In this document: positions 28,263 to 48,107 of the stretch, one piece after another
Numbering within the stretch: position 1 is the stretch's first letter
How the letters are laid out: every line of letters starts with the position of its first letter
Origin: Acidobacteriota bacterium
GTDB lineage: Bacteria > Acidobacteriota > Thermoanaerobaculia > Multivoradales > JAGPDF01
DNA: 64,000 nt
Assembly: GCA_045862895.1 (NCBI GenBank)
Contig: BTUO01000007.1
Location: 169,020 to 233,019 of the forward strand
Direction of reading: 5' to 3'
Notes under the pieces: model-generated
Database searches by the model: none
What the model was told of the DNA's origin: nothing
Seen by the model: only the letters and a program-made list of their open reading frames with translations
Made by a program: the position numbers and the translations under genes

Positions 28263-30218
28263 ATGGGTATCGCAGGGCCCCGTTTCGTCCTCGCGCTCTG
28301 TCTCATCGCCGCCACTTCCGTCCGGGCCCAGCCCGGCGCCTGCGCGCCCGAGCTGCTGGCCACCGACCGCCGTGGCTCGCCATCGTCGATCTCCCGCCAG
28401 GGCGACGTCCTCTACCTCGGCGCCGGCGCCGCGGTGGTGGTAGTCGACACGACAGATCTTGCGGCGCCGCTCGAGCGGGGCCGGGTCGACCTCGACGAGA
28501 TGGTTCTAGACGTCGCTCACTGGCAGTCCACCGTGGTCGCCCTCGGCCAGCATGGCCTCACGTTCGTCGACGCCAGTGATTCCGAGCACCCCACCGTCAC
28601 CGGTTCCTTCCCATTCCCGGCGGCCTGGATCGTTCGCTCGATCGCGGCGCGCGAGTCGCATGCGTTCGTTCCGGAGGTAAACGGGCTGCGCATCGTGAGC
28701 TTCGTCGATCCGACTGCGCCGGCCGAGGTTGGCTTCTTCCCAGCGGTCTCGACGCGCGACGTCGCCGTGAGCGGTCAGCGGGCCTACCTGCTGAGCGCGG
28801 GGATTCTGCGCGTGGTCAACGTCTCGAATCCCGCGAGTCCCTACCAGGTCGCGTCGTTGCCGGTGGACATTGGCAATGACGACCGGCTGAGCATCGCCGG
28901 CAGCGGCAATCGCCTCGCGGCGTGGGGCAGATGGTCGGATGGCCATTTCACAGGCTCGGCGGCCGAGCTCTTCAGCCTCGCCGATCCAGCGCTGCCGGTG
29001 AAACGAAGCTCCCTCGTCTACGATGACTACGGCTTCGAGTCGCTGGCTTTCGCGTTCGATCGCGTCTACTTCGGAGGGATCATCTACGACGTCGCGTCGC
29101 TCGCGAATCCCGTCGAGGTCGGGACCCTGCTCCCGCTGTTCTGGCCCGTCGACATGGCGATCGCGCCTGATCCCGACCGGCTCTTCGTCGCCGCAGCGGA
29201 TGGGGGGCTCCACGTCGCGGAGATTTCAAGCCCAGGCAACCCGAGTATCGAGGCCAGCATCTACATGCCGAGCGACGCGACAGACGGCTATCTCGCCGGA
29301 ACCATGGCGGTCCTCGTGCGGGAAGACGCGCTCGAGGTCTTCGATCTTTCCGATCCGGCTCACCCCGCTCGGCTGAGCAGCCTCCCAGCCGGCGCGGCCC
29401 AATTCGAGGAGGTCGAGCGGGTCCGCGACCACGCTTACGTCAGATCCGCGCACGACTTGAAGATCGTCGATCTCTCGAATCCCCTCGAGCCGGTCCAGAC
29501 GGGAAGCGTGGGCTACTCCGTCTGGAACGCCCCGGCGTTCGCCGGGGGCGTCGTCGGGTTCGTGGACGATTGTGCGGCGGTCGTTCGCCTGCTCGACGCC
29601 AGCCAACCCGGCGCTCCGCAGTTCTTGAGCGAGATCCCGCTCGATGAGAACTGCTACAAGACCGACTTCGCCATGACTGCGGAGCGCCTCTACGTCTGGG
29701 ACTACGACGGATTCGACGGCGACAGCCGGCTCCGAACCTTCGACCTCTCCGACCCCGCCCAACCGCTCGAGATCGGCGCGGCCGCAGTCGACCCCTGGCA
29801 CTGGTCCCGGAGCGCGGTGCGGGGCCGCTACCTTCTCCTCACCGACGAAGATCGTTTCGGCGTGCTCGATCTGGCTGCGCCCGCGAATCCCATTCCGGCA
29901 GCGAACCTGTCGCTTCCCGGCGGCCACTGGTTCCTGCGCAAGTTGACCGTGTACGGGGGAGTCGCGCTGGTGGCACCGCACTCCTACTCGACGGGCTCGG
30001 ACGACCGGCTCGTGGTCGTCGACGTCTCGAATCCCCCGGCCTCCGCGGTGATCGCCGAGATTGATCCCGCGGGTCGCGGCAACGCGGCTTTCGCGGGTCC
30101 CGGCCTGATCATGGTCGCCGACGGGCCGGCGGGCTATTCGATCTACTCCTCGTGCGTCCCGTTCGCCGACGGCTTCGAGAGCGGCGACGCGTCGGAGTGG
30201 AGTCTCGCCGGCCGGTGA
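28263..30218 (+). CDS. secreted LVIVD-repeat beta-propeller protein with FADGFESG tail (paralog A)
   Basis: Signal peptide. About 13 [VIL]xD[VL]SxPxxP repeats. Ends CVPFADGFESGDASEWSLAGR. 651 aa. Confidence 0.88.
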   Translation: MGIAGPRFVLALCLIAATSVRAQPGACAPELLATDRRGSPSSISRQGDVLYLGAGAAVVVVDTTDLAAPLERGRVDLDEMVLDVAHWQSTVVALGQHGLTFVDASDSEHPTVTGSFPFPAAWIVRSIAARESHAFVPEVNGLRIVSFVDPTAPAEVGFFPAVSTRDVAVSGQRAYLLSAGILRVVNVSNPASPYQVASLPVDIGNDDRLSIAGSGNRLAAWGRWSDGHFTGSAAELFSLADPALPVKRSSLVYDDYGFESLAFAFDRVYFGGIIYDVASLANPVEVGTLLPLFWPVDMAIAPDPDRLFVAAADGGLHVAEISSPGNPSIEASIYMPSDATDGYLAGTMAVLVREDALEVFDLSDPAHPARLSSLPAGAAQFEEVERVRDHAYVRSAHDLKIVDLSNPLEPVQTGSVGYSVWNAPAFAGGVVGFVDDCAAVVRLLDASQPGAPQFLSEIPLDENCYKTDFAMTAERLYVWDYDGFDGDSRLRTFDLSDPAQPLEIGAAAVDPWHWSRSAVRGRYLLLTDEDRFGVLDLAAPANPIPAANLSLPGGHWFLRKLTVYGGVALVAPHSYSTGSDDRLVVVDVSNPPASAVIAEIDPAGRGNAAFAGPGLIMVADGPAGYSIYSSCVPFADGFESGDASEWSLAGR

Positions 30219-30248
30219 CCGGACGGCCGGCGCGGGACCGCTCGCACG

Positions 30249-32092: not shown

Positions 32093-35000
32093 ATGCACGG
32101 AACGTCCGTCCGTCGCTCCTGGTTCGTGGCAGTCGTCGCGGCGTTTCTCGTCGCCGCGCCGGCTCTCGCGCTCGATCCGAAGGAGCCCACCAGCTTCCTC
32201 GACCTGCAGCAATTCGTCGCGCCGGAGCTGGTCATCTCCAGCTCGCACCTCGCGCTGGACGAGGCCCTCGCGGAGCTGCCGAACCGTGACGCCTGGGAGG
32301 CGTTCGTCGCCGACCGGCTCGCCGCGGGCGGCGACCTGCTGGTCTTCATCGACCCGAGATCGGGCGGCGCGACCAACCTGCTCGGCGCCTTTCCGCTGAT
32401 TCCGGGCGACGGCGTCGGCAACGACCTGACCCTGGACGGCCTCGCGGCGAAACTGGGCCGCCCGGTCGCCACGGTCGATGCCGCCGCCGTCGGCGACGCG
32501 GTCCGACGTTTCGTCCTCGATCACGCCAAGCTCCTCGGCATCGATCCCGCCGAGCTCGGGCCGGTCACCGCCGTCCGCATGGCGGACGACTACTGGCAGG
32601 CGAGCGCGACCCAGCGGGTCGGCGACGTCGACGTGCGCCACGCCCGCCTCGCCGCCACCATCCGCCACGGCAACCTGGTGACGATCGGCACCGAGACCTG
32701 GGGACGGGTCGGAGCGGTGCCTGCGCCCGCCATCGACGCCGGAAAGGCCCTCGAGACCGGGTTCCAGTTCGCCGGTGGCCGCTCCGCGGCCGACGCGCTG
32801 CTCTCCGAGCCCCGGCTCGAGTGGGTGCCCGTCGCGCCGCAGGAGCACCAGGCGGGCGAGGCGTTCGTCGGGCCGATCGGCAGCGGCTATCGCCACCGCC
32901 TGGCCTGGAGCTTCGTCTTCCAGCGCGAGCCCGAGCTCGCCAACTGGCAGGTGACGATCGACGCCGCCAGCGGCGAAGTGCTGGCGCTCGAGGACGTCAA
33001 CCAGTACGTGCAGCGCTCGGTGACCGGCGGCGTCTACCCGACGACCTCGACCGAGATCTGCCCGACCCCGGGCACCTGCGGCACGATGCAGAGCGGCTGG
33101 CCGATGCCGTACGCCAACACCGGACTCGCCTCGCCGAACAACTTCACCAACGGCGCCGGCGTCTTCGACTGGACCAGCGGCACGGTGACCACCACGCTCT
33201 CCGGCCGCTACTTCCGCATGGCCGACAACTGCGGCTCGATCAGCGCCAGCTCGGGTACCGGCGACGTCGCGATGGGCGGCACCAACGGCCAGCACGACTG
33301 CACCACCCCGGGCAGCGGCGGCGCCGGCAACACGGCGGCCTCGCGCTCGGGCTTCTACGAGCTCAATCGGATCGCCGAGCAGGCGCGCGGCTGGCTGACC
33401 TCGAACAGCTGGCTCAACTCGCAGGTCACCTCGAACATGAATATCAACCAGACCTGCAACGCCTTCTGGAGCCCGGCGGCCGGAACCGTCAACTTCTACC
33501 GGTCGGGCGGCGGCTGCCGGAACACCGGCGAGCTGGCCGGCGTCTTCGACCACGAGTGGGGCCACGGCATGGACGACAACGACTCCGGCGGAGGCCTGTC
33601 GAACTCCTCGGAGGCGTATGCCGACATCGCGGCCATCTACCGGCTCCAGACCTCGTGCATCGGGCACGGCTTCTTCTGGACGGTCAACGACGGCTGCGGC
33701 CAGACGGCCGACGGCACCGGCTTCAACTCGAACGAGGCCCAGACCGGCGCCTCCTACTGCTGCACCGACTGCTCCGGCGTGCGCGACGCCGACTACGCCA
33801 AGCACAGCCCGGCGACGCCGGCCACGGCGCTCGGCTTCGTCTGCGGCCAGTGCCTGTCGAGCAGCGGCCCGTGCGGACGCCAGGTGCACTGCGCCGCGGC
33901 GCCCTCGCGGCAGGCGGCCTGGGACCTGGTCGCCCGCGACCTGACCGCGGCGCCGTTCAACCTCGACAGCCAGAGCGCGTTCCTGGTCGGCACCCGCAAC
34001 TTCTACCTGGGCAGCGGCAACATCGGCACCTGGCACGCCTGCACCTGCGGCTCGTCGTCGTCGGGCTGCGGCTCGACCAACGCCTACATGCAGTGGCTCG
34101 CCGCCGACGACGACAACGGCAACGTCAACGACGGCACGCCGCACATGACCGCGCTGTTCGCGGCCTTCGATCGCCACGGCATCGCCTGCTCGTCGCCCTC
34201 ACCGGTCAACAGCGGCTGCTCGGGCGGTCCGTCGACGGCGCCGACGCTGACGGTGACCCCGGGCAACTTCCAGAACCAGCTCTCCTGGACCGCGGTCTCC
34301 GGCGCCAGCCGCTACTGGGTGATGCGCACCGAAGGGCACGCCGGCTGCAACTTCGGCAAGACCCGCATCGCCGACGTCACCGGCACCAGCTACACCGACA
34401 CCAACGTCGCCAACGGGCGGACCTACTCCTACAACGTGGTGGCGCAGGGATCGAGCTCCTCCTGCTACAGCCGGCTCTCCTCCTGCGTCTCGGCGACGCC
34501 CTCCTCGAGCCCGGACTTCGCGCTCTCCTGCAGCCCGTCGAGCCTGTCGGTCCAGCAGGGACAGAACGGCACTTCGACCTGCACCGTGACCTCCTCCGGC
34601 GGCTTCGCCTCGGCGGTCGACCTGGCCTGCTCGAGCCTGCCTTCGGGTGTCAGTTGCTCCTACTCGCCCGACCCGGTGACCCCGCCGGCCAACGGCTCGG
34701 TCAACAGCACGCTCACCATCTCGGTGGGCGGCAGCACCGCCACCGGCACCCACGCCATCCAGGCCACCGGCACCAGCGGCGCGACCACCCGCACGGCGGC
34801 GCTCAGCCTGACCGTCACCTCGGCACCGACGCCCGACTTCAGCGTCGCGTGCAGCCCGTCGAGTCTGTCGATCCAGCAGGGCTCGAGCGGCGGCAGCACG
34901 TGCACGGTGACTTCGAGCGGCGGCTTCTCGTCGGCCGTCGCCCTCTCCTGCAGCGGCCTGCCGAGCGGCGCCTCGTGCGGCTTCGTCCCGTCGTCGGTCA

Positions 35001-36217
35001 CGCCCCCGGCCAACGGCAGCGCCAACAGCGCGCTGACCGTCACGGTCTCGGGCGCGACCCCGACCGGCACCACGCCGTTCACGGTGGTCGGAACCAGCGG
35101 CGCGACGACGCGCAACGCGTCGATGTCGCTCACCGTCACCGGCACCGGCGGCGGCGACCTGACCGCGGTCTTCGACGCCGCGCGCCAGGCGCCCGCCTGC
35201 ACCACGGTCGGACGCTCCTGCGACACCGGGGCCGCCCTGGTCCTCGGCAGGAACGGCGACGGTCCGGAGCCCAACCAGCCGAACACGATCAACGACTCGT
35301 GCGCGGACGGCACCTCCGGCACCTTCCACGTCGACGAATCGAACGACCGCCTGAAGGTCTCGACCGTCGACGGCAGCAACTTCGCCCCGGGCAAGACGGT
35401 GCGCATCGACGCCACCGTCTGGGCCTGGACCACTCCTTCGGCGGACGCGCTCGACCTGTTCTACGCCGCCGACGGCACCAACCCGAGCTGGACCTTCATC
35501 GGCACGATCGTCCCCACCGTCGCCGGCGCCCAGACGCTGTCGACCACCTACACCCTGCCCTCAGGAGCTCTCCAGGCGGTGCGCGCGCAGTTCCGCTACC
35601 AGAGCACCAACGCGGCCTGCGCCTCCGGCGGCTACAACGATCGCGACGACCTGGTCTTCGCGGTCGACTCGCCGACGCCGACCACGGTCTTCTCGGACAC
35701 CTTCGAGACCGCGCTCGGCTGGACCACCAACCCGAACGCCACCGACACCGCGACCACCGGCCAGTGGGAGCGCGGCGATCCGGAGACCACCACCTCGAGC
35801 GGCACCAAGCAGCTCGGGACCACGGTCTCCGGCGTCAACGACCTGGTCACGGGTCGCCTCGCCGGCTCCTCGGCCGGCGTCCACGACATCGACGGCGGCG
35901 TCACCACCATCCAGTCGCCGGCGATCGTCCTGCCGTCCACGGGAACGCTGTCGCTGTCGTTCAGCTACTACCTGGCCCACGGCAGCAACTCCTCGACCGC
36001 CGACTTCCTGCGCGTCTACGTGGTCGGCTCGACCACCAGCCTGGTCTTCGAGGAGCTCGGCGCCAACAACGACGACGACGCCGTCTGGGCGACCGCGAGC
36101 GCGAACATCAGCTCGTTCGCCGGCCAGACGGTGCGCATCCGCATCGAGGCTGCCGACGCCGCCGGCGCCAGCCTGACCGAGGCGGCCGTCGACGACGTGG
36201 TGATCACCCGGCAGTAG
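32093..36217 (+). CDS. large secreted thermolysin-like (M4/M36-type gluzincin) metallopeptidase with propeptide, Fn3, tandem Ig-like repeats and C-terminal jelly-roll/MAM-like domain
   Basis: Signal peptide, PepSY-like WQVTIDAASGEVL, HEWGH plus EAYAD third ligand, Cys-rich catalytic region, Fn3 (LSWTAVSGA...YNVVA). 1374 aa. Confidence 0.85.
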   Translation: MHGTSVRRSWFVAVVAAFLVAAPALALDPKEPTSFLDLQQFVAPELVISSSHLALDEALAELPNRDAWEAFVADRLAAGGDLLVFIDPRSGGATNLLGAFPLIPGDGVGNDLTLDGLAAKLGRPVATVDAAAVGDAVRRFVLDHAKLLGIDPAELGPVTAVRMADDYWQASATQRVGDVDVRHARLAATIRHGNLVTIGTETWGRVGAVPAPAIDAGKALETGFQFAGGRSAADALLSEPRLEWVPVAPQEHQAGEAFVGPIGSGYRHRLAWSFVFQREPELANWQVTIDAASGEVLALEDVNQYVQRSVTGGVYPTTSTEICPTPGTCGTMQSGWPMPYANTGLASPNNFTNGAGVFDWTSGTVTTTLSGRYFRMADNCGSISASSGTGDVAMGGTNGQHDCTTPGSGGAGNTAASRSGFYELNRIAEQARGWLTSNSWLNSQVTSNMNINQTCNAFWSPAAGTVNFYRSGGGCRNTGELAGVFDHEWGHGMDDNDSGGGLSNSSEAYADIAAIYRLQTSCIGHGFFWTVNDGCGQTADGTGFNSNEAQTGASYCCTDCSGVRDADYAKHSPATPATALGFVCGQCLSSSGPCGRQVHCAAAPSRQAAWDLVARDLTAAPFNLDSQSAFLVGTRNFYLGSGNIGTWHACTCGSSSSGCGSTNAYMQWLAADDDNGNVNDGTPHMTALFAAFDRHGIACSSPSPVNSGCSGGPSTAPTLTVTPGNFQNQLSWTAVSGASRYWVMRTEGHAGCNFGKTRIADVTGTSYTDTNVANGRTYSYNVVAQGSSSSCYSRLSSCVSATPSSSPDFALSCSPSSLSVQQGQNGTSTCTVTSSGGFASAVDLACSSLPSGVSCSYSPDPVTPPANGSVNSTLTISVGGSTATGTHAIQATGTSGATTRTAALSLTVTSAPTPDFSVACSPSSLSIQQGSSGGSTCTVTSSGGFSSAVALSCSGLPSGASCGFVPSSVTPPANGSANSALTVTVSGATPTGTTPFTVVGTSGATTRNASMSLTVTGTGGGDLTAVFDAARQAPACTTVGRSCDTGAALVLGRNGDGPEPNQPNTINDSCADGTSGTFHVDESNDRLKVSTVDGSNFAPGKTVRIDATVWAWTTPSADALDLFYAADGTNPSWTFIGTIVPTVAGAQTLSTTYTLPSGALQAVRAQFRYQSTNAACASGGYNDRDDLVFAVDSPTPTTVFSDTFETALGWTTNPNATDTATTGQWERGDPETTTSSGTKQLGTTVSGVNDLVTGRLAGSSAGVHDIDGGVTTIQSPAIVLPSTGTLSLSFSYYLAHGSNSSTADFLRVYVVGSTTSLVFEELGANNDDDAVWATASANISSFAGQTVRIRIEAADAAGASLTEAAVDDVVITRQ
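34514..35140 (+). repeat. two tandem ~107-aa Ig-like repeats inside the peptidase
   Basis: DFALSCSPSSLSVQQG...LSLTVT at 34514 and DFSVACSPSSLSIQQG...MSLTVT at 34835 (321-nt period). Confidence 0.85.
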
Positions 36218-36345: not shown

Positions 36346-39267
36346 ATGCAGAAGGCCGGCAAGTACGAGATCGTCCGCAAGATCGGCGCCGGGGGCTTCG
36401 GCGTCGTCTACGAAGGTCGCGACCCGTTCATCAAGCGGCGGGTCGCGATCAAGACGTGCACCACCGAGGACGAGGAGATCCGCCAGCGGTTCTACCGCGA
36501 GGCCGAGATCGCCGGCAATCTTCAGCACAAGAACATCGTCACGATCCACGACTTCGGCATCGAGGAGGGGGTCCCCTACCTCGTCCAGGAGTACCTGACC
36601 GGCGAGGACCTCGAGCACGTCATCGCGCGCGGCGCCCCGATCGCGCTCGAGCGCAAGCTCGACATCCTGATCCAGGTCGCGCACGGCATGGACCACGCCC
36701 ACGCCGCGGGCGTGATCCATCGCGACATCAAGCCGGCCAACGTCCGCCTGCTCGACGACGGCCGGGTCAAGATCCTCGACTTCGGAATCGCCAAGCTCGC
36801 CCACGTCGAGAGTCGGCTGACCAAGGAGGGGATGACGGTCGGCACCGCCGCCTACCTGCCCCCCGAGCAGATCCGTGGCGAGAAGATCGACTTCCGCTCC
36901 GACGTCTTCTCCTTCGGCGTGCTCGCCTACGAGCTGCTGGCGATGGTGCGGCCGTTCGACGGCAAGACCCTGTCGACGCTGCTCTTCCAGATCCTCTCGC
37001 AGGTGCCCAGGCCGCTGGCGGAGGCCTTCCCGGGCGCGCCGCCGCGGCTCGCCGCGCTGGTCGACAGCTGCCTCGACAAGGAGGTCGCGAAGCGCTGCGC
37101 CTCCTTCGCCGAGGTCTCCACCGAGCTCGAGGCGACCCTCGCCGAGCTGCCCGCCGACGACGGCGCCGCGGCGGCCGGGGCCACCCTCATCCTGTCGAAG
37201 CCGGAGGTCGACCCGCGCGCGGCCCTCCAGCCGCTGGTCGAGCAGGTGCGCCGGGCGCTCGCGGCCGGCGACCTGACCACCGCCGAGATCGAGATCGGCC
37301 GGGCGCGCGAGAACTGGGGGAGCCAGGGCCCGGCCGAGGAGATCCTGGCGCCGCTCGGCGCCGAGGTCGCCCGCGAGCGCGAGCGCCGCGACGAGCAGCG
37401 CCGCCGCGAGAGCCGGCTGCGCGAGCTGATCGACACCGCCGCCGCCGAGATGGGCGCGGCGCGCCCCGAACGCGCGGCCGAGCTGGCGCGCCAGGCGCTC
37501 GCCGTCGACGCCGGCTCGGCCGAGGCGCGCAGGCTGCTCGACGAGGCCGAGGCCGCCGTCCGCCTCGCGGCGGAGCGCGAGCGCCTCCGCCGCGAAGCCG
37601 AGGCGCTGGCTCGGGCCGAGGCCGATCGCGCGAAGCGCCACGCCGCGTTCGCCGACGAGATCGACGGGGCGATCGCCCAGGCCGCCTTCGCCCGGGCCGA
37701 GAAGGCGATCGCCCGCGCCGAAGCCGAGCTCGGCGCCGGCGCCTTCGAGGACCGGCGCCGCCGGTTGACCGAGCGGCGCGATGCCGCGCTCGAGGCCGAG
37801 CGACGGGAGGCGGAGCGCCTGCGCCTCGAGCGCGAGGAATCGGAGCGCCGCAAGGCCGCGGAGGACGAGCGCAAGCGCATCGAGCGCGCCGAGGCGGAGC
37901 GCCGGAAGGCCGAAGAAGCCGAGCGCCGGCGTGCCGAAGCGCGCGCCGCGGCCGAGCGGCGCGAGGCCGAGGCCCGCGCCGAGGCCGAGAAGCGCCGGGC
38001 CGAGCAACAGGCCGCCGCCGAGCGCAAGGCGGCCGCGGCGCGAGCCGCCGCCGAGCGCCGCGAGGTCGAGGCGAAAGCGGCCGCCGAGAAGCGCGAGGCC
38101 GAGCGGCAGGCCGCCGCCGAAGCCGCGCGCGAGAAGGCGCTGCGCCAGGCCGCCGCGAAGGTCGAGCAGCGTCTCGCGGCAGGCGACCTGGCACGCGCCC
38201 GGCGCGAGCTCGACAAGGCGCTCGCCGGGCAGGGCGACGCCGCGCCCCTCGCCGCCCTGGCGTCGCGCCTGGCCGCGGCCGAGGCCGAGTCTGCCAGCGA
38301 ACGACAGCGACTCGAGCGCGAGCGAGCCGACCGCGAGCGCGCCGCGGCGCTCGAGGCGACCACCGGCAGCGCCGTGCCCTCCGGCTCCTTCGCCAGCCCG
38401 GGCTCCTCGATGTCGAAGTCGGGGCGGCGGGTCGCGGGGTTGGCCGCGGCGGCCGGCATCGCGGGGGTGGCGCTCGTCTCCTGGCTGGTCTTCGGTCGCG
38501 GCGATCGCTCGCCGACCGAGACCGGGGTCGGTCCTGGCGCCGAAGCCGAAGTCGTGGCCGCGTCGCCCGCCACGGCGCCGGCGGGCTCTTCCCCACTCGC
38601 GACGCAACCCGCGGCGCCGGAGTCGCGGCCGGCCACCGACGCCGCGCCGCCGCCGTCTCCGGCGATCGTCTCGCCCGCGCCCGAAGCGGCGCCGGAGGAG
38701 GCCGATCCGGTCCGTCCCGTCGAGGCGTCGCCGACCCGTCCCGAGCCGTACCTGCCGGCGCCGGCGGTCGACCCGTCGCCGGTCGTCGAGCGCCCCGCGC
38801 CCGTCGCGCCGCCGATCCCGGAGCCGACCGCAACGCGTCCCGAAGCACGCCCCGAACCGGCGCCGCCGATCGAGGAGCGCCCGGAGCCGGCGCCGAGCGC
38901 ACCGGCCGAGGTCCGCCCCGAGCCGGTACCCGCCGCCGACCCGACCGTCGGCGTGCGCGCCGCGCTCGAGCGCTACCGCGCCGCCTACCAGGCGCTCGAC
39001 GCGGCCGCGGTCCAGGCGGCGTGGCCGGGCCTCGACGCCAATGCCCGGCGCCAGATCGCCCGCGCCTTCGAGGGTTACCACTCGATCGCGATGAGCCTCG
39101 AGGACTGCCGCTACGAGGTCGAGGGCGAGCGCGCCACGGCGCGCTGCCGCGTGACCCAGACGATCGACGTCAAGGTCGGCCGCGACCTCGAGTCGACCCA
39201 GGACGTGGTCTTCGGGCTGCGCCGCGCGGGCGCCGGGTGGGTGATCCAGGAGCGCACCGCGCGCTGA
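36346..39267 (+). CDS. membrane Ser/Thr protein kinase with long TolA-like helical region, Pro-rich linker and C-terminal NTF2/SnoaL-like domain
   Basis: IGAGGFGVVY, VAIK, HRDIKPAN, DFG, YLPPEQ. E/R/A/K coiled coil, TM, Pro-rich stalk. TG-C-TACGCT -10 at 36322-36330. Confidence 0.9.
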   Translation: MQKAGKYEIVRKIGAGGFGVVYEGRDPFIKRRVAIKTCTTEDEEIRQRFYREAEIAGNLQHKNIVTIHDFGIEEGVPYLVQEYLTGEDLEHVIARGAPIALERKLDILIQVAHGMDHAHAAGVIHRDIKPANVRLLDDGRVKILDFGIAKLAHVESRLTKEGMTVGTAAYLPPEQIRGEKIDFRSDVFSFGVLAYELLAMVRPFDGKTLSTLLFQILSQVPRPLAEAFPGAPPRLAALVDSCLDKEVAKRCASFAEVSTELEATLAELPADDGAAAAGATLILSKPEVDPRAALQPLVEQVRRALAAGDLTTAEIEIGRARENWGSQGPAEEILAPLGAEVARERERRDEQRRRESRLRELIDTAAAEMGAARPERAAELARQALAVDAGSAEARRLLDEAEAAVRLAAERERLRREAEALARAEADRAKRHAAFADEIDGAIAQAAFARAEKAIARAEAELGAGAFEDRRRRLTERRDAALEAERREAERLRLEREESERRKAAEDERKRIERAEAERRKAEEAERRRAEARAAAERREAEARAEAEKRRAEQQAAAERKAAAARAAAERREVEAKAAAEKREAERQAAAEAAREKALRQAAAKVEQRLAAGDLARARRELDKALAGQGDAAPLAALASRLAAAEAESASERQRLERERADRERAAALEATTGSAVPSGSFASPGSSMSKSGRRVAGLAAAAGIAGVALVSWLVFGRGDRSPTETGVGPGAEAEVVAASPATAPAGSSPLATQPAAPESRPATDAAPPPSPAIVSPAPEAAPEEADPVRPVEASPTRPEPYLPAPAVDPSPVVERPAPVAPPIPEPTATRPEARPEPAPPIEERPEPAPSAPAEVRPEPVPAADPTVGVRAALERYRAAYQALDAAAVQAAWPGLDANARRQIARAFEGYHSIAMSLEDCRYEVEGERATARCRVTQTIDVKVGRDLESTQDVVFGLRRAGAGWVIQERTAR

Positions 39268-39293: not shown

Positions 39294-40607
39294 TCAGAAG
39301 CTGTAGTCGATCCCGAACAGCGGGATGATGCCGTCGTCCTGCAGCCCGTCGTCGGACATCGACACGATGGCGTTCAAGCTGATCAGGAAGTTCCCGCCCG
39401 GGTTCCAGCGCACTCCGAACGAGCCGAGCAGCAGGTTCAGGTCGTCCTGCCCGAACTCGAGGTCGGCGACCTGCGCGGTCTCGACCGGCGCGCCGGTCGC
39501 GGTGGTGAACTGGACCGTGCGGTCGACCGACTGGATGGTGCGCGCGTCGCGCAGAACCCGGCCGACGACGTCGGCGGCGAAGGTCAGGCGCGGATGCGCG
39601 GCCCAGTCGAAGCCGGCCGCGTAGTTGATCTCGTCCGGCACGTCGCCGCCCGAAGAGACCGTGTAGCCGAGATTGCCGTGCGGCGAGAAGCTTCCGAACG
39701 TGGTCGAGCCGACCAGCAGCAGCTTGCCCTGGGTGGCGCCGGTGCCCAGCAGGTCCTGCTCGTCGCCGGTGGGCAGCCGCAGGTCGAGTGCCGCCGCCAG
39801 GCCCGAGCCGCCGTCGCCCGCCAGCCGGTACTTGCCGCGCAGCACGACGTCGCCGATCCCCGAGGCGCTCCCTTCCGCGAAGTGGGACTCGGTGGTCGAG
39901 CCGTTGCGGAAGCGGTGGATCGAAGAGGCCTGGCCGGTCGCGAGCCGGTTGATCGAGAGCACCGCCTCGGCCTCGAGCTCGACGTCGAGCACCGGAATCG
40001 CCAGCGACAGGTCGAGCCGGTCGGTGGCGCCGTAGCTGACGAAGAAGACCGCGGTCGAGGTGTCGAGCCGGATCCGCGACGCCGCCTCGATGACGTCGCC
40101 CTCGAAGAAGAGCGAAGTCGTCGACCCGTCGTGGTTGGTGTCCTCGTGGAACAGCGGGAAGGCGATCTCGCCCTCCTCGAGGTCCAGGTCGTCGAGCTTG
40201 TCGTAGCTCGCCTCCTGGTAGCTGAAACCGGTGTTCCACTTGCCGCGGCCGAGCGACTGGGCGCGCTCGGCGTAGATCGGGCCGAACGACTCGGAGGTGC
40301 GGTTGAAGATGCCGAGCGCCGGGTCGTAGGCGTAGGTGAAGCCGCCCGCCGAGGAGCCGAGCGGGAAGGTCGCGAGCTGCGTCGCCAGGCTCTCGTTGAT
40401 CAGCCGGCCCGCGTTGCGCAGCCGGTCCTCCTGGTCGACGAAGTGGGCGGCGTGGCTCGGGAATCCGGGCGGCGGGTCGGCCAGGATGATGCGCTGGTCG
40501 AAAAGACTGGGCAGCAAGCTCGCCAGATCGTCCGCGGCGGCGGGCGCCGCGATCGCGACGAGGGCGAGGACGGCGACGAGACAACGGGCGAACGACGAAA
40601 GGCGCAT
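39294..40607 (-). CDS. outer-membrane beta-barrel protein (MetA-pathway-of-phenol-degradation 'transporter'-like)
   Basis: Signal peptide, GIGDVVLRGKY, LRLPTGDEQDLLGTG, alternating amphipathic strands, C-terminal Phe (GIDYSF). Confidence 0.8.
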   Translation of the reverse strand: MRLSSFARCLVAVLALVAIAAPAAADDLASLLPSLFDQRIILADPPPGFPSHAAHFVDQEDRLRNAGRLINESLATQLATFPLGSSAGGFTYAYDPALGIFNRTSESFGPIYAERAQSLGRGKWNTGFSYQEASYDKLDDLDLEEGEIAFPLFHEDTNHDGSTTSLFFEGDVIEAASRIRLDTSTAVFFVSYGATDRLDLSLAIPVLDVELEAEAVLSINRLATGQASSIHRFRNGSTTESHFAEGSASGIGDVVLRGKYRLAGDGGSGLAAALDLRLPTGDEQDLLGTGATQGKLLLVGSTTFGSFSPHGNLGYTVSSGGDVPDEINYAAGFDWAAHPRLTFAADVVGRVLRDARTIQSVDRTVQFTTATGAPVETAQVADLEFGQDDLNLLLGSFGVRWNPGGNFLISLNAIVSMSDDGLQDDGIIPLFGIDYSF

Positions 40608-40774: not shown

Positions 40775-41224
40775 TCAGACGCGCAGCCAGTCGGCGCGCC
40801 AGTCGCGCACCGCCCGCTTGATCGAGTCCCCCGTGGCGAGCCGACCGTCCAGGACGGCGCGCACCAGCTCGGGCAGCTCGGCGTCGCTCGCGAAGCGCAG
40901 GGCGACCAGCTGCCGGGTGTCGAGCTCCTCGATGCGCGAGCGCAGCTCTTCGGGCAGGAGCCGAGCGAGGCGCAACCGCTCCTCGAGCCGGATCACCCGG
41001 TTCTGGACGACCAGCGCGTTGATCCGCACGTACCAGGCGAAGATCCCCGCGCAGCCGGCGAGCAGCACGGCGACTGCGCCCAGCAGCGAGGGCCGCAGCA
41101 CGACCTCGACGACCGCGCCGAGGGCGGCGATGGCGAGCAGGACGCAGGCTCCGAGGTACGGCATCGGCAGCCGGCGGACGTGATTCGAGTAGGTTTGCGG
41201 CGGGACGGTCGGCGGCATCGGCAT
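40775..41224 (-). CDS. DUF6526 family membrane protein
   Basis: QTYSNH, QNRVIRLEERLRL, QLVALRFASDAEL, IKRAVRDWRADWLRV. 149 aa. Confidence 0.85.
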   Translation of the reverse strand: MPMPPTVPPQTYSNHVRRLPMPYLGACVLLAIAALGAVVEVVLRPSLLGAVAVLLAGCAGIFAWYVRINALVVQNRVIRLEERLRLARLLPEELRSRIEELDTRQLVALRFASDAELPELVRAVLDGRLATGDSIKRAVRDWRADWLRV

Positions 41225-41295
41225 CTCCTCGCGTCGACGAGCGGATCGACGGCGGGAGACTAGCGCGCCACCGTCTCCGGGCGTCGCGAGCGGAC

Positions 41296-42552: not shown

Positions 42553-42694
42553 GTCGCACCCCCGCCAGCAAGCCTAGCTTCCGCCTCGGCTTCGACTCCT
42601 GCCCCCGCGGGTAGTCGTGTTCCGCCGGCCCTTGTCAGCTCGGGCGCGGAGGTCCAGAATGACCGGACCGGTCGCCCCTGCCGAGGAGACTCTC

Positions 42695-44665
42695 GTGCCG
42701 AAACTCAGCTTCGCCTGCGCTCTCGCCCTCCTGCTCGGATCCGCCGCGCTCGAAGCGCAGACCTGCGTCCCCCACCTGCTCGGCGCCGACCGCCGCGGAC
42801 CGGCCCAGTCGATCTCGCGGACCGGCTCGACGCTCTACGTCGGCACCGGCGCGGCGCTGCTCGTCGTCGACGTCACCGACCGCGCGAACCCGGTCGAGCG
42901 CGGCTACGTCAATCTGGACGGTATCGTCCGCGACGTCGCCGCCGCCGGCTCGATCGCGGTGGTGCTCGCGGATTCCGGCCTCTTCTTCGTCGACGCTACC
43001 GATCCGGAGGAACCGATGCTCGCGGGCTGGTGGCCGATTCCTGCGCTCTGGTACGTGCGCCACATCGACGCTCGCGGCACGCTCGTCTACCTTCCGGCCG
43101 CCGACGGCCTCCATATCGTCGATTTCACGGATCCGGCGGGCGCCGCTCAGGTCGGCTTCCTCGCTACGCTCGACTCCCGCGACGTCGTGACCCGGAGCCC
43201 GACCCGCGCCTACATCGTCGGCAACGGTTCGCTCCACGCCATCGACATCTCGATTCCCTCGGCACCCACGGTCGTCTCGTCGACCGCCCTCCCCAACGGC
43301 GCCGATGCGGCACTGGCCATCGGTCCCAATGGCGGCCGCCTGGCGGCCTGGCGCAACTACTCTTCTCACCACCCGTGGAGCGACGTCGCGCTCTTCGATC
43401 TCTCCGACGCAGATCAACCGGTCTTTCGATGGGGAACTTCGGGTGAACCGATCTCAGCGCTGACGATCGCAGGCGACCGCGCCTATATCGGGAGCTCGAT
43501 CTACCGCATCTCGAATCCGGCGCAGCCGACTTGGCTCGGTGAGCTTGGAGTCGACGCTCCGAGCAGTCATGCGCCCACCGGCAACCCGGATCTGCTCTAT
43601 GTCGCGGACTCGACCCGGGGAGTCGCGACGATGAACGTCTCCGACGGCGGCTCCGTCGTCGAGGTCGACCTCGTCGCACTGCCGACCGAGACGATCGACG
43701 GCTACGTCGCTGGAGGATCCGCGGTGATCCTGGAACGGAGTGGACTGCGCGTCGCGAACCTGAACGCTCCGGACTTGCTCGAGCCGGTCGGAGACCTCCG
43801 ATTGCCCCAGACCTGGCTCTCGAACATCACGCGGATCTCGACTCACGCCGTCGTCGTCGGGTACTTCGACGACGGACCCAACGTGATGCGTCTCGTCGAC
43901 TTGGCGAATCCGGCCGAGCCGACACTCGGCGTGACGCTGCCCACTCTCGCCGAACGACCTCCGGTCGTCGATCAGAACCTGCTCCTGGCCATGTCCAGAT
44001 GCTCGGGTAGCCGTTCCGTCGCCATCTACGATGTCTCGGAACCTGCGCTGCCGATTCTCGTTACGGAGCTCGAGACCGAATCGGAGTGTCTGTACCCCGA
44101 CCTCGCTGCCGACGGCGACCGACTCTACGTCTGGCGTGAAGTCGATCCCTATCCGATCGGACACTACGTTTTCACAGTGTTCGACATCTCGGTGCCCGAT
44201 GCCCCGGTCGAGCTCGCGAGATCGAGCACCGAGAACCATTGGGGCTCCAGCGTCGCCCGCGGACACAGGCTGGTGCTCACCGAGGACGAGCGGCTCGACG
44301 TGCTCGATCTCGCCGACCCTGCGACGCCCGTCCTCCGCGGTTCGGTGCCTCTGCGAGAATCACGCGGGGTCTCCACCGAGCAGGTCCGCCTGTACGGCAG
44401 CCGCGCCGGGCTTCCGCGACGCGGTCGCGACGCGAACGGCAATCGGGACGATCGTCCGAGCCTCGTCGATATCTCCGATCCTGCGGCACCCTTCGAGTGG
44501 GCGGCGCTCGACACGCCCGGCACCGGCGACAGCATCTTCTTCGGACCCGGAGTCGTCGTCGTGGCCGACGGCGCGGCCGGAATCTCGATCTTCGAGTCCT
44601 GCGTTCCCTTCGCCGACGGCTTCGAGTCGGGCGATACGTCGGAGTGGAGCCTGCTCGAACCGTAG
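42695..44665 (+). CDS. secreted LVIVD-repeat beta-propeller protein with FADGFESG tail (paralog B)
   Basis: GTG start with GAGGAG SD; TTGTCA-N17-CAGAAT upstream. Signal peptide, about 13 LVIVD-like repeats. Ends CVPFADGFESGDTSEWSLLEP. Confidence 0.88.
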   Translation: MPKLSFACALALLLGSAALEAQTCVPHLLGADRRGPAQSISRTGSTLYVGTGAALLVVDVTDRANPVERGYVNLDGIVRDVAAAGSIAVVLADSGLFFVDATDPEEPMLAGWWPIPALWYVRHIDARGTLVYLPAADGLHIVDFTDPAGAAQVGFLATLDSRDVVTRSPTRAYIVGNGSLHAIDISIPSAPTVVSSTALPNGADAALAIGPNGGRLAAWRNYSSHHPWSDVALFDLSDADQPVFRWGTSGEPISALTIAGDRAYIGSSIYRISNPAQPTWLGELGVDAPSSHAPTGNPDLLYVADSTRGVATMNVSDGGSVVEVDLVALPTETIDGYVAGGSAVILERSGLRVANLNAPDLLEPVGDLRLPQTWLSNITRISTHAVVVGYFDDGPNVMRLVDLANPAEPTLGVTLPTLAERPPVVDQNLLLAMSRCSGSRSVAIYDVSEPALPILVTELETESECLYPDLAADGDRLYVWREVDPYPIGHYVFTVFDISVPDAPVELARSSTENHWGSSVARGHRLVLTEDERLDVLDLADPATPVLRGSVPLRESRGVSTEQVRLYGSRAGLPRRGRDANGNRDDRPSLVDISDPAAPFEWAALDTPGTGDSIFFGPGVVVVADGAAGISIFESCVPFADGFESGDTSEWSLLEP

Positions 44666-44675
44666 CCGTTCTTCG

Positions 44676-46307
44676 TCAGAAGTCGAACGCCTCCCACGCG
44701 GCGGTGTCGCCGCTCTCGAAGCCGTCGCCGAAGAGGGCGTCGCGCTCGAAGGCGCCGAGGTCGAGGCCGGTGCCCGCGACGCGCGGGGCGTGGTCGGCGT
44801 CGTAGGCGCCGACCGAGTCGAAGGTCGCGTCGCCGGCGTCGAGCGCCTGCGAGCTCGCCTGCAGATGGAAGTCGCCGGCGCCGGAGGCTTCGAACAGCGG
44901 ATCCGGATCGCCCAGCTCGCCGATCCAGTTGTGCTGGGCGACGCGGTCGAATTCTGGGTCGCCGAGGAGGACCTGGACGTCGTTCGCGGGGCCCGGCCCG
45001 TTGCTCCAGAGGATCGAGTTCTCGAGACGGAGCTCGGCGTCCGTGGACTCCGAGAGCTCGACGCCGACGCCCGCGTGCCCGACCACGGTCAGGTTGCCGG
45101 CGACCAGCGTGCTGCCGGCACCGGATGCCGAGAGGCGGATCCCCTTCGGCGGACCGCCGACCGAGAGCAGGTCGGAGGCGATCAGGGTCGAGCCGTTCGA
45201 GGCCGACAGCAGGCCGACCAACTGCGCGTCGTCGACCCGCGAGAAGCCGTAGGAACGGACGCGGCGGAGGACCAGCGGCGCGGCACCGGTCGATCCGACC
45301 TCGAGCTCGCGGGGCGTGTGGCTCTGCGCCGGGCCGAACAGAGCATCGCCGCCGAGCCGCAGATCCTCGAGCACGACGGATCCGGCCGCGCCGACGCTCG
45401 AGGAGAGGCTGAATCCCGCCGCGCTCACGACGCCGGTCGCTTCGACACCGTTGCCGTCGAGTAGCAGCCGCCGCCCTTCGAATCGCACGGAGTCCGAAAG
45501 CGAGATCCGCATGGCTCCGCCGATCGCGATCGATCCGGGCAACGCCGAGTCCGCCTGGTTGTCGAGAAACGAGACGTTCGACAGGCCGACCACGGTGTTC
45601 TCCTGGGCGATGAGGTCGAGCCCGCCGCCCGCGCACGAGATCCCGACCCCGGGATCGAGCGCGGTCGCGAGATTGTCGAGGAACAGCGTGTCCTCGATCG
45701 AGATCGTCTGACCGGTGCCGCTGTTGAAGATCGAGACCGCGCCGCCGTTGACCGCGCTCGAACCGGTCAGGACCACGTCGCGCAGCGCGAGGCTGGCGCT
45801 CTCGACCCGGATCGCGCCGCCGTGAGCGGGGCTCTCGGCGTGTGCCGAGCCGCCGACGAGGCCGACGTTGCGGACCGCGAGCCGGGCGCCCGCCGTGACC
45901 CGGACGAAACGGTTGGCGCCGAGCAGGTGGATCTCGGCGAAGCCGGCGGCGGGCGCGCCGCGCACGGTGAGATCGATCGCCGCTCCCGTGAGCGTCTCCT
46001 GGCCCTGGTCGAACGCGAAGGGTCCCTCGACCGCGAGCACGATCTCGTCGACCGCGCCGCCGGCGGCGCATTCGTTGACCGCCAGGTCGGTCGCCGCCGC
46101 GCGGATCGCCTCGCGCAGCGAACAGACGCCGTCGACCGCGACCGCGTCCGCGATCGACGTGATCGACCAGCCGGTGGCGTGCGCCGGCGACGCCCCGCCG
46201 AGCAAGGCGACGAGCGCGAGGCCGGCGGACGCCGGCGCGAGAACGCCGGCCGCGGCGAGCGGGTGGATCCGCGAGGACGGCGCGGTACGGACGGACGTGG
46301 ACGACAT
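44676..46307 (-). CDS. secreted CSLREA-domain / beta-helix protein with choice-of-anchor-Q-like segment and FGDGFESG tail
   Basis: DGVCSLREAIRAA, GGAI repeats, GDFHLQASSQALDAG...DLGAFE, tail LFGDGFESGDTAAWEAFDF. Start at 46307 (SD GGAGG) or 46325. Confidence 0.88.
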   Translation of the reverse strand: MSSTSVRTAPSSRIHPLAAAGVLAPASAGLALVALLGGASPAHATGWSITSIADAVAVDGVCSLREAIRAAATDLAVNECAAGGAVDEIVLAVEGPFAFDQGQETLTGAAIDLTVRGAPAAGFAEIHLLGANRFVRVTAGARLAVRNVGLVGGSAHAESPAHGGAIRVESASLALRDVVLTGSSAVNGGAVSIFNSGTGQTISIEDTLFLDNLATALDPGVGISCAGGGLDLIAQENTVVGLSNVSFLDNQADSALPGSIAIGGAMRISLSDSVRFEGRRLLLDGNGVEATGVVSAAGFSLSSSVGAAGSVVLEDLRLGGDALFGPAQSHTPRELEVGSTGAAPLVLRRVRSYGFSRVDDAQLVGLLSASNGSTLIASDLLSVGGPPKGIRLSASGAGSTLVAGNLTVVGHAGVGVELSESTDAELRLENSILWSNGPGPANDVQVLLGDPEFDRVAQHNWIGELGDPDPLFEASGAGDFHLQASSQALDAGDATFDSVGAYDADHAPRVAGTGLDLGAFERDALFGDGFESGDTAAWEAFDF

Positions 46308-46336
46308 CGGACCTCCCGGGAGCATGGTCTCCCTCG

Positions 46337-46366
46337 CTACGCGGGAGGTACGTCGGCGGGGGGACA
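46337..46366 (-). promoter_or_regulatory. candidate ECF-sigma promoter for the CSLREA gene
   Basis: TGTCCC-N17-CGCGTAG on the minus strand. Same architecture as 48108-48137. Confidence 0.5.
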
Positions 46367-46467
46367 GCGCGAGGGGCGGCGGCGGAGGGAGCCCGACCTG
46401 TCCGCGCCGTCGTCCCCGGCGACGACGCGGTCGCGCCCGCCACCGGGGAACGACGTCGGTGACCCGA

Positions 46468-48102
46468 TCAGAAGGCGCCGGCCGACCAGCGCGACGCGAA
46501 GCCGTTCTCGAAACCGTCGCCGAACAGCGAGCCGCGCAGCACGATCTCGGCGCCGGTTCTGGGAGCCTCGCCGGGCACCTGCTCGTCGGGCGCTCCGATC
46601 ACCAGATCGGCGTGACCGTCGCCGTCGAAGTCGCCCGCGGCGAGCGCCCAGCCGAACATCGAGGACTGGTTGAGCGCTCCGGGCAGCCCGCCGACGCCCT
46701 CGAGCACCGTCAGCCGGCGCGAGGTCGTGAGACGCGACGGCGACCCCATCATCGCCGAGACCTGTCCGGCCTCGGCCACCGGCGTGTCCTCGCGTGGCGT
46801 GCCGACCACGAGATCGTCGTAGCCGTCGGCGTCGAAGTCGGCGGCGACCAGGCTGAAGCCGAACAGGTCGTCGGACTCGTCGTGACCGGGGCCGACGAAG
46901 TTGCCCTGCTCCCAGTACTGGGTGCGCGACAGGTCGAAGCGGAAGGGCGAGCCGTAGATCGTGAAGGCGGCGCCGGCGTTGACCAGGACGTTGTTCAGGC
47001 CGAGGTCCTCGAACGGCGCGCCGATCGCCAGATCGTCGTGGCCGTCGCCGTCGAAGTCGCCGGCGGCGAGCTCGAAGCCGAAGGTGTCACCGCTCTCGCT
47101 CAGCCCCCCGATGCTGGTCTCCCACCAGAGGACGTTCTCCGCAAACAGCAGCCCCCACTGGCTGCCGAAGACGACCTGGATCGCCCCTTCGCCGTCCTCG
47201 CCGGGCACGCCGATCGCGAGGTCGTCGTAGCCGTTGGCGTCGAAATCGCCGGTCGCCAGCCCCTCGCCGAAGCGGTCCCCGGGATCGCGCGTGCCGAGCA
47301 GCCCCAGCAGCCCCTGGTACATGTCGTATCCGAGGTAGGGCATCAGGCCACCGACGCCGCCGTGCAGGACGACGACGCTGCCGGCGTCCTCGAAGCCCGA
47401 GCCGGAGACGTAATCGTAGGGGACGCCGACCGCGAGATCGTCGAAGCCGTCGCCGTCGAAGTCGCCGACGGCCAGCGCGCTGCCGAAGCGGTCGAAAGCC
47501 TCCGGAGTGCCGGGAATGTCGAGAGCGGCCTGGCGAAGGAAGTGCTCGCCGACAGTCTGGATCCCCTCCGGCAGCCCGTAGTGGATCGAGACGCCGCCGG
47601 CGTGCTGGGCGCCGGTGTTGTTGCGGGGAACGCCGACGGCGAGGTCGTCGCGACCGTCGCCGTTGAAGTCGCCCGCCGCGAGGCTCAGCCCGAAGACGTC
47701 CTCCGGCTGCGCGGGGTCGGGGCTGCCGACGAACTGCTGGCTGAGCACCGTCGACGCCAACCCGCCAGCCAGCCCCGAGCCGGGTACGCCGAAGCGGACG
47801 ACGACGATGCCGCAGTCGATGCAGCCGCTGCCGACGATGCCGTTGTGGCCGGGGATGCCGGTGGCGAGATCGGCCGCGCCGTCGCCGTTGAAGTCGCCAG
47901 TGGCGAGCGCGAAGCCGAACTGGTCGCCGTGCTCGGGGACGAAGAACAGCAGGTCCTCGTCGCCGAACCACTCGGAGCCGACCGCGGAGAGCCCCACCGC
48001 GAGCGGCTGCCCGGCGGCCGCAGCGGGGGAGGAGAGGGAAGCCAGAGCGGCGATGGCGCCGCCCAGGAGCAGAGGTGCGGAGAGTCGGATGTCGGTTCTC
48101 AT
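46468..48102 (-). CDS. secreted FG-GAP (integrin-alpha-like) 7-repeat propeller protein with FGDGFENG tail
   Basis: Seven FGxxLAxGDFDGDGxDDLAVGxP repeats and a signal peptide. Tail LFGDGFENGFASRWSAGAF. Confidence 0.92.
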   Translation of the reverse strand: MRTDIRLSAPLLLGGAIAALASLSSPAAAAGQPLAVGLSAVGSEWFGDEDLLFFVPEHGDQFGFALATGDFNGDGAADLATGIPGHNGIVGSGCIDCGIVVVRFGVPGSGLAGGLASTVLSQQFVGSPDPAQPEDVFGLSLAAGDFNGDGRDDLAVGVPRNNTGAQHAGGVSIHYGLPEGIQTVGEHFLRQAALDIPGTPEAFDRFGSALAVGDFDGDGFDDLAVGVPYDYVSGSGFEDAGSVVVLHGGVGGLMPYLGYDMYQGLLGLLGTRDPGDRFGEGLATGDFDANGYDDLAIGVPGEDGEGAIQVVFGSQWGLLFAENVLWWETSIGGLSESGDTFGFELAAGDFDGDGHDDLAIGAPFEDLGLNNVLVNAGAAFTIYGSPFRFDLSRTQYWEQGNFVGPGHDESDDLFGFSLVAADFDADGYDDLVVGTPREDTPVAEAGQVSAMMGSPSRLTTSRRLTVLEGVGGLPGALNQSSMFGWALAAGDFDGDGHADLVIGAPDEQVPGEAPRTGAEIVLRGSLFGDGFENGFASRWSAGAF

Positions 48103-48107
48103 GACCA

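Follow-up and report, generated by a model that had tools for sequence, protein, structure and literature searches.

Four predicted exported proteins encoded in a 64,000-nucleotide stretch of DNA from an Acidobacteriota bacterium (contig BTUO01000007.1, positions 169,020 to 233,019; hereafter the window) end in the same short acidic sequence, which is built around the motif DGFE and is referred to here as the tail. This tail is apparently an undescribed C-terminal tag that is widespread in Thermoanaerobaculia-type Acidobacteria. With a confidence only slightly better than even, we consider it to be an address tag that is read by a partner in the cell envelope.

The four proteins are two LVIVD paralogues (LVIVD-A and LVIVD-B), a CSLREA protein and an FG-GAP protein. 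In their translations the stop codon follows the first Phe of the tail after 18 residues in all four cases, with a Trp at position 13. A six-frame scan of the 64 kb found the tetrapeptide DGFE four times, each time 16 residues ahead of a stop, whereas only 0.19 occurrences are expected from the composition (73% guanine plus cytosine, GC) and 0.0013 at that distance from a stop; the maximum reached in 100 first-order Markov simulations was one. The LVIVD-B and CSLREA genes are convergent and only 10 bp separate their stops (44665 and 44676), so that a hidden downstream domain is impossible for these two proteins. Together with the FG-GAP gene they form a group of adjacent tail genes at 42617-48138 of the window. 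Neither the remainder of the window nor the 7.6 kb past its start (locus L135) contains a further tail. The first-pass annotation of this DNA had already described the four tails, and its sequences are identical to our translations, the 18-residue length and the Trp offset included. Its other statements on the four proteins stand as well: the N-termini of all of them read, by eye, as Sec-type signal peptides, and the three unrelated body folds (LVIVD twice, FG-GAP and a beta-helix) are backed by Pfam, NCBIfam and AlphaFold.

The distribution of the tail outside the window was investigated in two ways. A profile of 20 positions (A4), built from the window tails and the tails of their orthologues, was used for an exhaustive search of 1.84 billion cluster representatives and retrieved 1,509 protein clusters at E <= 1e-3. 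Among the best 150 of these clusters, 86 contain a single copy, and in 78 of the 86 the profile ends on the last residue of the protein. In parallel, a degenerate DNA pattern for F[AG]DGFE[ST]GD was run against one genome per GTDB species and gave at least 118 loci; among the 124 matches listed for them, the distance from the first Phe to the stop is exactly 18 residues in 59 and falls within 13-21 residues in 101. Terminal copies therefore predominate over internal ones in both searches, a comparison that the first-pass annotation had proposed. A word-indexed protein search with the tail profile returned only three candidates and was set aside as unsuited to short motifs.

The consensus that emerges is Phi-F-[AG]-D-G-F-E-[ST]-G-D-x-[ST]-x-W-[ST]-x-x-V-P, preceded by a Pro/Gly-rich linker of 2-5 residues. 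Of 98 tails from other genomes, 96 have Ile, Leu or Val ahead of the first Phe, unlike the two LVIVD tails of the window, which have Pro there; since this residue is also conserved, the functional unit comprises 19-20 residues. Further positions that were left free by the search pattern are conserved, namely Trp13 (60/60), Ser14 (50/60), Val17 (36/60) and the terminal Pro (52/60). At the DNA level, Ser7 is encoded by both codon families (TCN in 64 cases, AGY in 21), all four Gly codons are used and the 30 bases downstream of the stop contain no conserved information. As these three features show, selection acts on the protein and not on a DNA repeat.

Among the matches listed, the motif is terminal in 46 of 55 from Thermoanaerobaculia (including Multivoradales and Sulfomarinibacteraceae), in 12 of 13 from metagenome-assembled genomes (MAGs) labelled Holophagae, in 30 of 31 from other Acidobacteriota and in 4 of 4 from MAGs labelled Myxococcota or Deltaproteobacteria; in Actinomycetota, Chloroflexota, one genome of the candidate phyla radiation, Planctomycetota and Vicinamibacteria it is internal only. 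Within this set, terminal use thus appears to be restricted to Acidobacteriota and a few Myxococcota. Of the two groups to which the first-pass annotation had ascribed similar tails, Thermoanaerobaculia was borne out, and Xanthomonadales was not, only one Kangiella MAG being among the matches listed. Neither Pfam (2025) nor NCBIfam 20.0 has a curated model for these 20 terminal residues: it would match most of the 76 complete tail proteins collected from other genomes and would top the list of families, and no model does. Likewise, literature searches with the motif strings and with choice-of-anchor sorting returned nothing relevant.

The tail also occurs in tandem. Small proteins of 140-240 residues contain two or three units in a row, at intervals of 20-21 residues (P0026, P0036, P0038, P0043-P0047, P0051, P0056, P0059 and P0064), and none of these proteins has a Pfam match. 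The 20-mer thus behaves like a module in its own right, and the constant distance of 18 residues between the first Phe and the stop corresponds to one complete unit. The presence of several copies suggests binding avidity. The gene of one tandem protein, P0026, comes immediately after a holin gene (PF11351; phrog_3427, E = 2.9e-32), with the end of which it overlaps. A scan of IMG/VR identified seven terminal tails on small signal-peptide proteins, on contigs of 62-71% GC; an endolysin gene (phrog_435, E = 1.4e-44) is overlapped at its end by one of these genes, downstream of which lies a lipoprotein-like open reading frame (ORF), and the distance between another of them and an amidase endolysin gene is 1.2 kb. 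Since tail genes are found in lysis cassettes, phages of these hosts appear to use the tail too. The phage and prophage tail proteins (L120:2114-2587, +; L127:3287-3721, -; L130:8078-8674, -; also in L126, L128, L131 and L132) are encoded beside lysis genes and combine a hydrophobic anchor or signal at the N-terminus with a small domain that contains Cys and with one to three units. They may be spanin-like or moron proteins that exploit the tag of the host.

The bodies to which the tail is attached are diverse. The complete tail proteins collected from other genomes, 76 in number, are 121 to 1,403 residues long, and a simple heuristic recognised signal-peptide-like N-termini on 49 of them compared to 113 of 401 neighbouring genes (p = 4e-9), an enrichment in line with the first-pass annotation; a few of the 76 are lipoprotein-like. 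Their bodies include S8 peptidases (9), right-handed beta-helices (9) and FG-GAP proteins (6), as well as BNR/sialidase-like, CarboxypepD_reg, InhA-like MAM, cadherin-like and M14 domains. More than 20 unrelated classes are represented among the 130-residue segments upstream of the tail, which therefore has no common domain ahead of it. NCBIfam choice-of-anchor domains D (53.5 bits, cutoff 45) and J (31.3 bits, cutoff 30) were detected on tail proteins elsewhere, and choice-of-anchor O and Q domains are also among the bodies. Choice-of-anchor families are defined by the differing sorting signals that they carry across lineages. Among 120 LVIVD homologues, 19 end in the tail and 17 in domains resembling the C-terminal domain (CTD) of the type IX secretion system (T9SS), eight of which are PF18962. 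On homologous bodies the tail thus occupies the slot that recognised sorting signals occupy in other phyla. A second short terminal motif devoid of a transmembrane helix, ...[YF]LP[LIV]x[LMV]R followed by 0-6 residues, is present in 16 of the 120 LVIVD homologues (P0196, P0200, P0201, P0209, P0214, P0217, P0235, P0237, P0239, P0248, P0252, P0257, P0270, P0271, P0283 and P0292). The only named carrier among these 16 belongs to the Chloroflexi, and P0262 (Thermoflexales) has a similar end, ...RLPVIRR, that does not match the pattern. This motif may be another undescribed C-terminal tag.

The tail can be present or absent on one and the same type of body. It is kept in 20 orthologues of the CSLREA protein with body identities down to 36%, and in the orthologues of LVIVD-A with 34-70% identity, except P0189, which ends exactly at the junction between body and tail. 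A signal-peptide protein of 1,374 residues encoded in the window (32093-36217, +), which has no Pfam or NCBIfam match, lacks the tail (...AAVDDVVITRQ-stop), whereas homologous proteins of L102 (about 41% identity) and of L115 carry it at their end; the tail is therefore gained and lost on this body. Both P0189 and the 1,374-residue protein indicate that the tail is dispensable for the body. Cys is found within the 10 residues ahead of the tail in 21 of 98 cases compared to 11% expected (p = 0.003; L002-L119), as in ...SSCVPFADG... of both LVIVD proteins of the window, and may belong to a disulfide bond that holds the end of the body in place.

These features could also be those of a cleavable export signal similar to the T9SS CTD, which would be read by a dedicated outer-membrane translocon and removed by a signal peptidase or a sortase-like enzyme, the new C-terminus perhaps being linked covalently to a surface glycolipid. 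Such a signal would likewise be located at the extreme C-terminus of Sec-exported proteins, would have no transmembrane helix and would be carried by the same cargo families, including the LVIVD homologues of other phyla that end in PF18962 domains. It is the main alternative to the address tag, but we regard it as unlikely, as the tail has 18-20 residues and is not a folded beta-sandwich of 70-100 residues, TIGR04183 and PF18962 have no match on the four window proteins at E <= 1, the tail occurs in tandem copies, and no T9SS component (PorU, PorV, SprA, PorK-N) was found in the 64-kb window or in ~0.9 Mb of loci. We know of no cleaved sorting signal that is found in tandem copies. The weak PorU-like similarity of one tail protein (45 bits), which would also fit such a signal, concerns the 1,121-residue product of L090:283-3645 (-), where the match to NF033707 is partial and its cutoff is 420 bits; a choice-of-anchor J domain directly precedes the tail of this protein. 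Two further sets of matches were rejected. Those to models of M36 peptidases that depend on myxosortase, rhombosortase or T9SS are, in the members inspected, partial, far below cutoff and due to the shared choice-of-anchor J/MAM-like domain. The Por_Secre_tail/TIGR04183 model matches 3 of the 76 members, and the one match inspected is an artefact of an internal CarboxypepD_reg-like repeat.

The origin of the motif is indicated by the top-scoring proteins of the exhaustive search, which contain two to six copies. In a first class (e.g. P0024, P0025, P0027, P0029 and P0034) each copy starts a repeated domain of ~190 residues, and in a second class (P0030, P0033 and P0053) the same motif opens a different jelly roll. 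The profile of the class-one domain matches Cip1 of Hypocrea jecorina (3ZYP) with E = 1.6e-4, starting from Cip1 residue 3, SDDFESGWDQTKW. Sub-threshold Pfam matches were obtained with Polysacc_lyase (PF14099) from profile position 1 and with the carbohydrate-binding module family CBM_4_9 from position 3, and a match of Laminin_G_3 spans the body of one copy. AlphaFold predicted an internal class-one domain with a predicted local distance difference test (pLDDT) score of 91.6, the motif reaching 94-95, and the best Foldseek matches of this model were 3ZYP (TM 0.75) and the PL20 glucuronan lyase 2ZZJ. In Cip1, Ile2-Asp4 form strand 1 and Phe6-Trp15 the 'N-terminal loop'; between this loop, the 'bent fingers' loop and the C-terminal strand 15 a structural Ca2+ is enclosed (PMC3764139). 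The ligands of this ion are the side chain of Glu7, the main-chain oxygen of Asp5, Ser37, Asn40 and Asp206 of the C-terminal strand (PMC3764139). Residues D3-G4-F5-E6...W13 of the tail map to D4-D5-F6-E7...W15 of Cip1. Judged by this correspondence, the tail is in sequence a strand together with half of a Ca2+ site that is normally completed by the rest of the sandwich.

No complete sandwich of ~190-220 residues follows the motif in the window, as the stop is reached 18 residues past the first Phe in all four cases. Similarly, hidden Markov models (HMMs) of the jelly-roll bodies had no match in the window, and a PDB search with the 20-residue profile alone had no match. The possibility, considered in the first-pass annotation, that the motif is already an assigned folded domain thus applies in part: it opens a Cip1/PL20-type jelly roll, but the tail retains only 13-18 of the ~190 residues. 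In an AlphaFold2 (AF2) model of the CSLREA protein based on an alignment of 20 sequences, residues 524-543, which form the tail, have a pLDDT below 50 and are undocked from the beta-helix.

Two other explanations were considered. The tail might be a cis structural element, that is, a small C-terminal cap that binds Ca2+ and makes beta-rich secreted domains more stable or soluble but has no targeting role. The acidic residues of the tail, which match the Ca2+ ligands of the Cip1 loop, the beta-rich nature of all bodies and the modest enrichment of Cys upstream of the tail (see above) are compatible with a cap, but more than 20 unrelated folds provide no common docking surface, AF2 leaves the tail unpacked on the beta-helix and tail-less orthologues and homologues exist; the lineage restriction, the tandem copies and the small phage proteins also misfit a generic cap, which we consider very unlikely. 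It is highly improbable that the tails are functionless vestiges of truncated C-terminal Cip1/PL20-type, carbohydrate-binding-module-like jelly rolls. Such domains do begin with the identical motif, and some proteins, P0033 among them, have a complete jelly-roll domain followed by an extra terminal unit, but remnants would decay and vary in length, whereas the length of the tail is precise (mode 18), its Trp and terminal Pro are strongly conserved despite synonymous codon turnover, and it is kept in orthologues down to 34-36% body identity and on hundreds of independent bodies. Finally, although the window has a high GC content and a strong codon bias and the four tail DNAs look alike, chance or a DNA repeat of the REP (repetitive extragenic palindrome) or attC type overlapping the gene ends can practically be dismissed, given the four observed copies against the expectation above, the lack of conservation past the stop, the use of both Ser codon families and the location of the matches in frame at the ends of long ORFs.

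We therefore return to the address tag. Such a tail would be appended through its Pro/Gly-rich linker of 2-5 residues to Sec-exported proteins of many folds and, after export to the periplasm, would remain free of the body. An envelope partner would then recognise it and either deliver the cargo to the outer membrane or the cell surface, or retain it there. Recognition might take place by fold complementation, in which beta-strand addition is combined with shared Ca2+ coordination and the partner supplies the rest of the site. From the sequences we infer a governing role of the tail in localisation, the existence of a partner and the mode of binding between them. Non-covalent docking is favoured because of the jelly-roll origin of the motif, the tandem units and the phage proteins that combine an anchor with the tail. 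The first-pass annotation had proposed a portable secretion or surface-docking tag, and the tail is indeed portable, C-terminal, without a transmembrane helix, lineage-restricted and found on signal-peptide proteins; secretion or display is the part of that proposal that we only infer.

In its most specific form, which we think quite unlikely to hold, the mechanism would be a split jelly roll. The cargo would provide only strand 1 with the Ca2+ loop, the N-terminally incomplete Cip1/PL20-type sandwich would belong to a receptor in the outer membrane or at the surface, or to a scaffold with several sites, and both parts would assemble in a Ca2+-dependent manner. This would imply, for Thermoanaerobaculia-type Acidobacteria, a cellulosome-like or pilus-like docking of dozens of enzymes and adhesins per genome, and their phages would exploit it with the membrane-anchored tandem-tail proteins of the lysis cassettes, which would bridge the inner and outer membranes. 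Fold complementation would represent a new principle of protein docking, which could possibly be used as a compact, Ca2+-switchable display tag. That split-fold complementation is a categorically new mechanism is a suggestion we make with the same low degree of confidence.

Several observations weigh against the address tag. No recurrent flanking family beyond those of the kinase and sigma factor genes described below was found by BLAST clustering of the 118 loci, and a Pfam survey of the 98 immediately flanking ORFs detected 144 families, none of which occurs in more than four loci. A jelly roll without a first strand of its own was not detected in ~1 Mb of sequence, a sample that was not chosen for this purpose. 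About 10% of the terminal tails end right at the Trp, which indicates that the last five residues are non-essential. The low pLDDT of the CSLREA tail is no proof that it is free, the AF2 model being based on 20 sequences. The signal-peptide heuristic applied to the 76 tail proteins is crude and under-counts, and the signal peptides of the window proteins were read by eye. Lastly, the DNA-pattern scan is biased towards the consensus, the taxon proportions are approximate and the taxon labels of MAGs are those deposited.

The search for a partner or other machinery identified none. HMMs of the two jelly-roll bodies from which the first 15-17 residues had been removed were used to detect a receptor devoid of its N-terminal hairpin, and this candidate was rejected as all the matches had their own first strand. 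The outer-membrane barrel encoded next to the tail genes, which the first-pass annotation had put forward as a possible partner, was abandoned because no homologue is found near the tail genes of the 118 other loci. The same search gave no homologues of DUF6526, PMT_2 or the DAO oxidoreductase near those genes. The tail genes are thus dispersed, like the cargo genes of T9SS or exosortase systems, and any partner would be encoded elsewhere.

C-terminal sorting signals are the main handle for the prediction of bacterial surface proteins, and new machinery was discovered each time such a signal was recognised, as with PEP-CTERM, GlyGly-CTERM and the T9SS CTD. Soils and sediments are rich in Acidobacteriota, most of which are uncultured. 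The tag marks more than 1,500 protein clusters now annotated as hypothetical, among them peptidases, glycan-active enzymes and adhesin-like repeats. A profile of 20 residues would define the secretome or the surface proteome of the tail-bearing Acidobacteriota, and could serve as a query for phylogenetic profiling towards the partner.

The features of the window are listed below. LVIVD-A is present as an identical protein in public assemblies, and its closest named relative is from a Thermoanaerobaculia MAG (53% identity), so that the organism of the window probably belongs to this class itself. The CSLREA protein matches NF041518 (26.9 bits, cutoff 25) and TIGR04214, weakly also rhombotarget A, and is modelled by AlphaFold/AF2 as a beta-helix with a body pLDDT above 90. 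The neighbours of the tail genes are a PMT_2 glycosyltransferase, two Ser/Thr kinases, a Phenol_MetA_deg-type barrel, a DUF6526 protein, a DAO oxidoreductase and an extracytoplasmic function (ECF) sigma factor (TIGR02999) with a kinase. Kinases with tetratricopeptide repeats (TPR) are also encoded near the tail genes in 16-17 of the 118 loci and ECF sigma factors in four. This recurrence could reflect co-regulation or the plain abundance of these genes in the phylum. Being regulators that are abundant in the phylum, and not transport proteins, they were discarded as candidates for the machinery.

Tail units, tail-bearing genes and neighbouring genes of the window (positions counted from the first letter of the 64,000-nucleotide stretch)
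Feature	Position	Strand	Remarks
LVIVD-A tail unit	30159..30218	+	P-FADGFESGDASEWSLAGR-stop; 30162-30218 counted from first Phe
LVIVD-B tail unit	44606..44665	+	P-FADGFESGDTSEWSLLEP-stop; 44609-44665 counted from first Phe; minus-strand reading is nonsense
CSLREA protein tail unit	44676..44735	-	L-FGDGFESGDTAAWEAFDF-stop; 44676-44732 counted from first Phe; AF2 pLDDT <50, undocked
FG-GAP protein tail unit	46468..46527	-	L-FGDGFENGFASRWSAGAF-stop; 46468-46524 counted from first Phe; most divergent copy
LVIVD-A gene	28263..30218	+	651 aa; signal peptide MGIAGPRFVLALCLIAATSVRA; PF08309 LVIVD, E = 2e-24; weak choice-of-anchor B match
LVIVD-B gene	42617..44665	+	LVIVD-A paralogue; PF08309, E = 2e-16; true start probably internal, ahead of KLSFACALALLLGSAALEA
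CSLREA/choice-of-anchor Q protein	44676..46325	-	public gene call from 46307, 543 aa
FG-GAP protein	46468..48138	-	PF01839, E = 1e-68; 7 repeats; probable start at 48102 (MRTDIRLSAPLLLGGAIAALASL...)
Ser/Thr kinase-TPR genes; ECF sigma (TIGR02999) with overlapping kinase gene	24384-28109, 36346-39267, 48192-48764, 48731-51463	+	flank tail genes
Outer-membrane barrel, Phenol_MetA_deg type	39294-40607	-	ends ...GIDYSF
DUF6526 protein	40775-41233	-	

The tail was finally compared to known systems. Like the T9SS CTD, it is C-terminal, has no transmembrane helix and is carried by Sec-exported enzymes and adhesins of many folds, LVIVD bodies being shared with other phyla. However, the CTD is an immunoglobulin (Ig)-like beta-sandwich of 70-100 residues that is handled by PorV, PorU and SprA, whereas the tail, with its 18-20 residues, cannot fold alone, may be in tandem and is found in Acidobacteriota. 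PEP-CTERM/exosortase, GlyGly-CTERM/rhombosortase, MYXO-CTERM/myxosortase and LPXTG/sortase systems also rely on short C-terminal tags on choice-of-anchor bodies, but their signals are tripartite, with a motif, a transmembrane helix and a basic cluster. The 18 residues of the tail are net acidic and contain no hydrophobic stretch, and thus do not form such a signal, PGF-CTERM included; a membrane-embedded enzyme of the sortase type therefore cannot handle the tail in the same way. As the tail also has no NCBIfam match to models of this kind, we agree with the first-pass annotation that handling by an exosortase or a rhombosortase is unlikely. No PEP-CTERM-like tails were detected in 683 ORFs. 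In a Holophagae-labelled MAG (L073, reverse complement at ~2480), one unit precedes a hydrophobic helix and a basic cluster (...WSTVIPALFGDGPLVNGMLLVLMVAGAAVMRLKER-stop), and the whole looks like a hybrid between the tail and a sortase-type anchor.

Among folded modules, Cip1 (3ZYP), the PL20 glucuronan lyase (2ZZJ) and related concanavalin-like jelly rolls share the motif itself, Cip1 reading I2-S-D-D-F-E-S-G-W-D-Q-T-K-W15 with the Trp at the end of the loop, but they add ~190 residues that complete the sandwich, whereas a tail protein ends after the loop. Dockerins are a purely functional analogy, as they are short, acidic, Ca2+-binding C-terminal modules with units of ~22 residues, which dock many secreted enzymes non-covalently onto a scaffold. 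They differ from the tail in being alpha-helical and EF-hand-like, with ~70 residues, the motif DxNxDGxID and known cohesin partners; neither this motif nor a partner of that kind was seen here, and no Pfam match to the dockerin family PF00404 was found among the tail proteins. The choline- or cell-wall-binding repeats (PF01473) are also aromatic C-terminal units of ~20 residues that provide non-covalent anchoring, but they form arrays of many units in Gram-positive bacteria and have no sequence in common with the tail. The donor-strand complementation of chaperone-usher pili similarly completes a beta fold by a strand provided in trans; there, the strands complete Ig folds and share no sequence with the tail. 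Having no transmembrane helix or basic cluster, no CTD sandwich, no EF-hand repeats and only 13-18 residues of a jelly roll, the tail thus resembles a C-terminal sorting or docking signal and yet lies outside every defined class.

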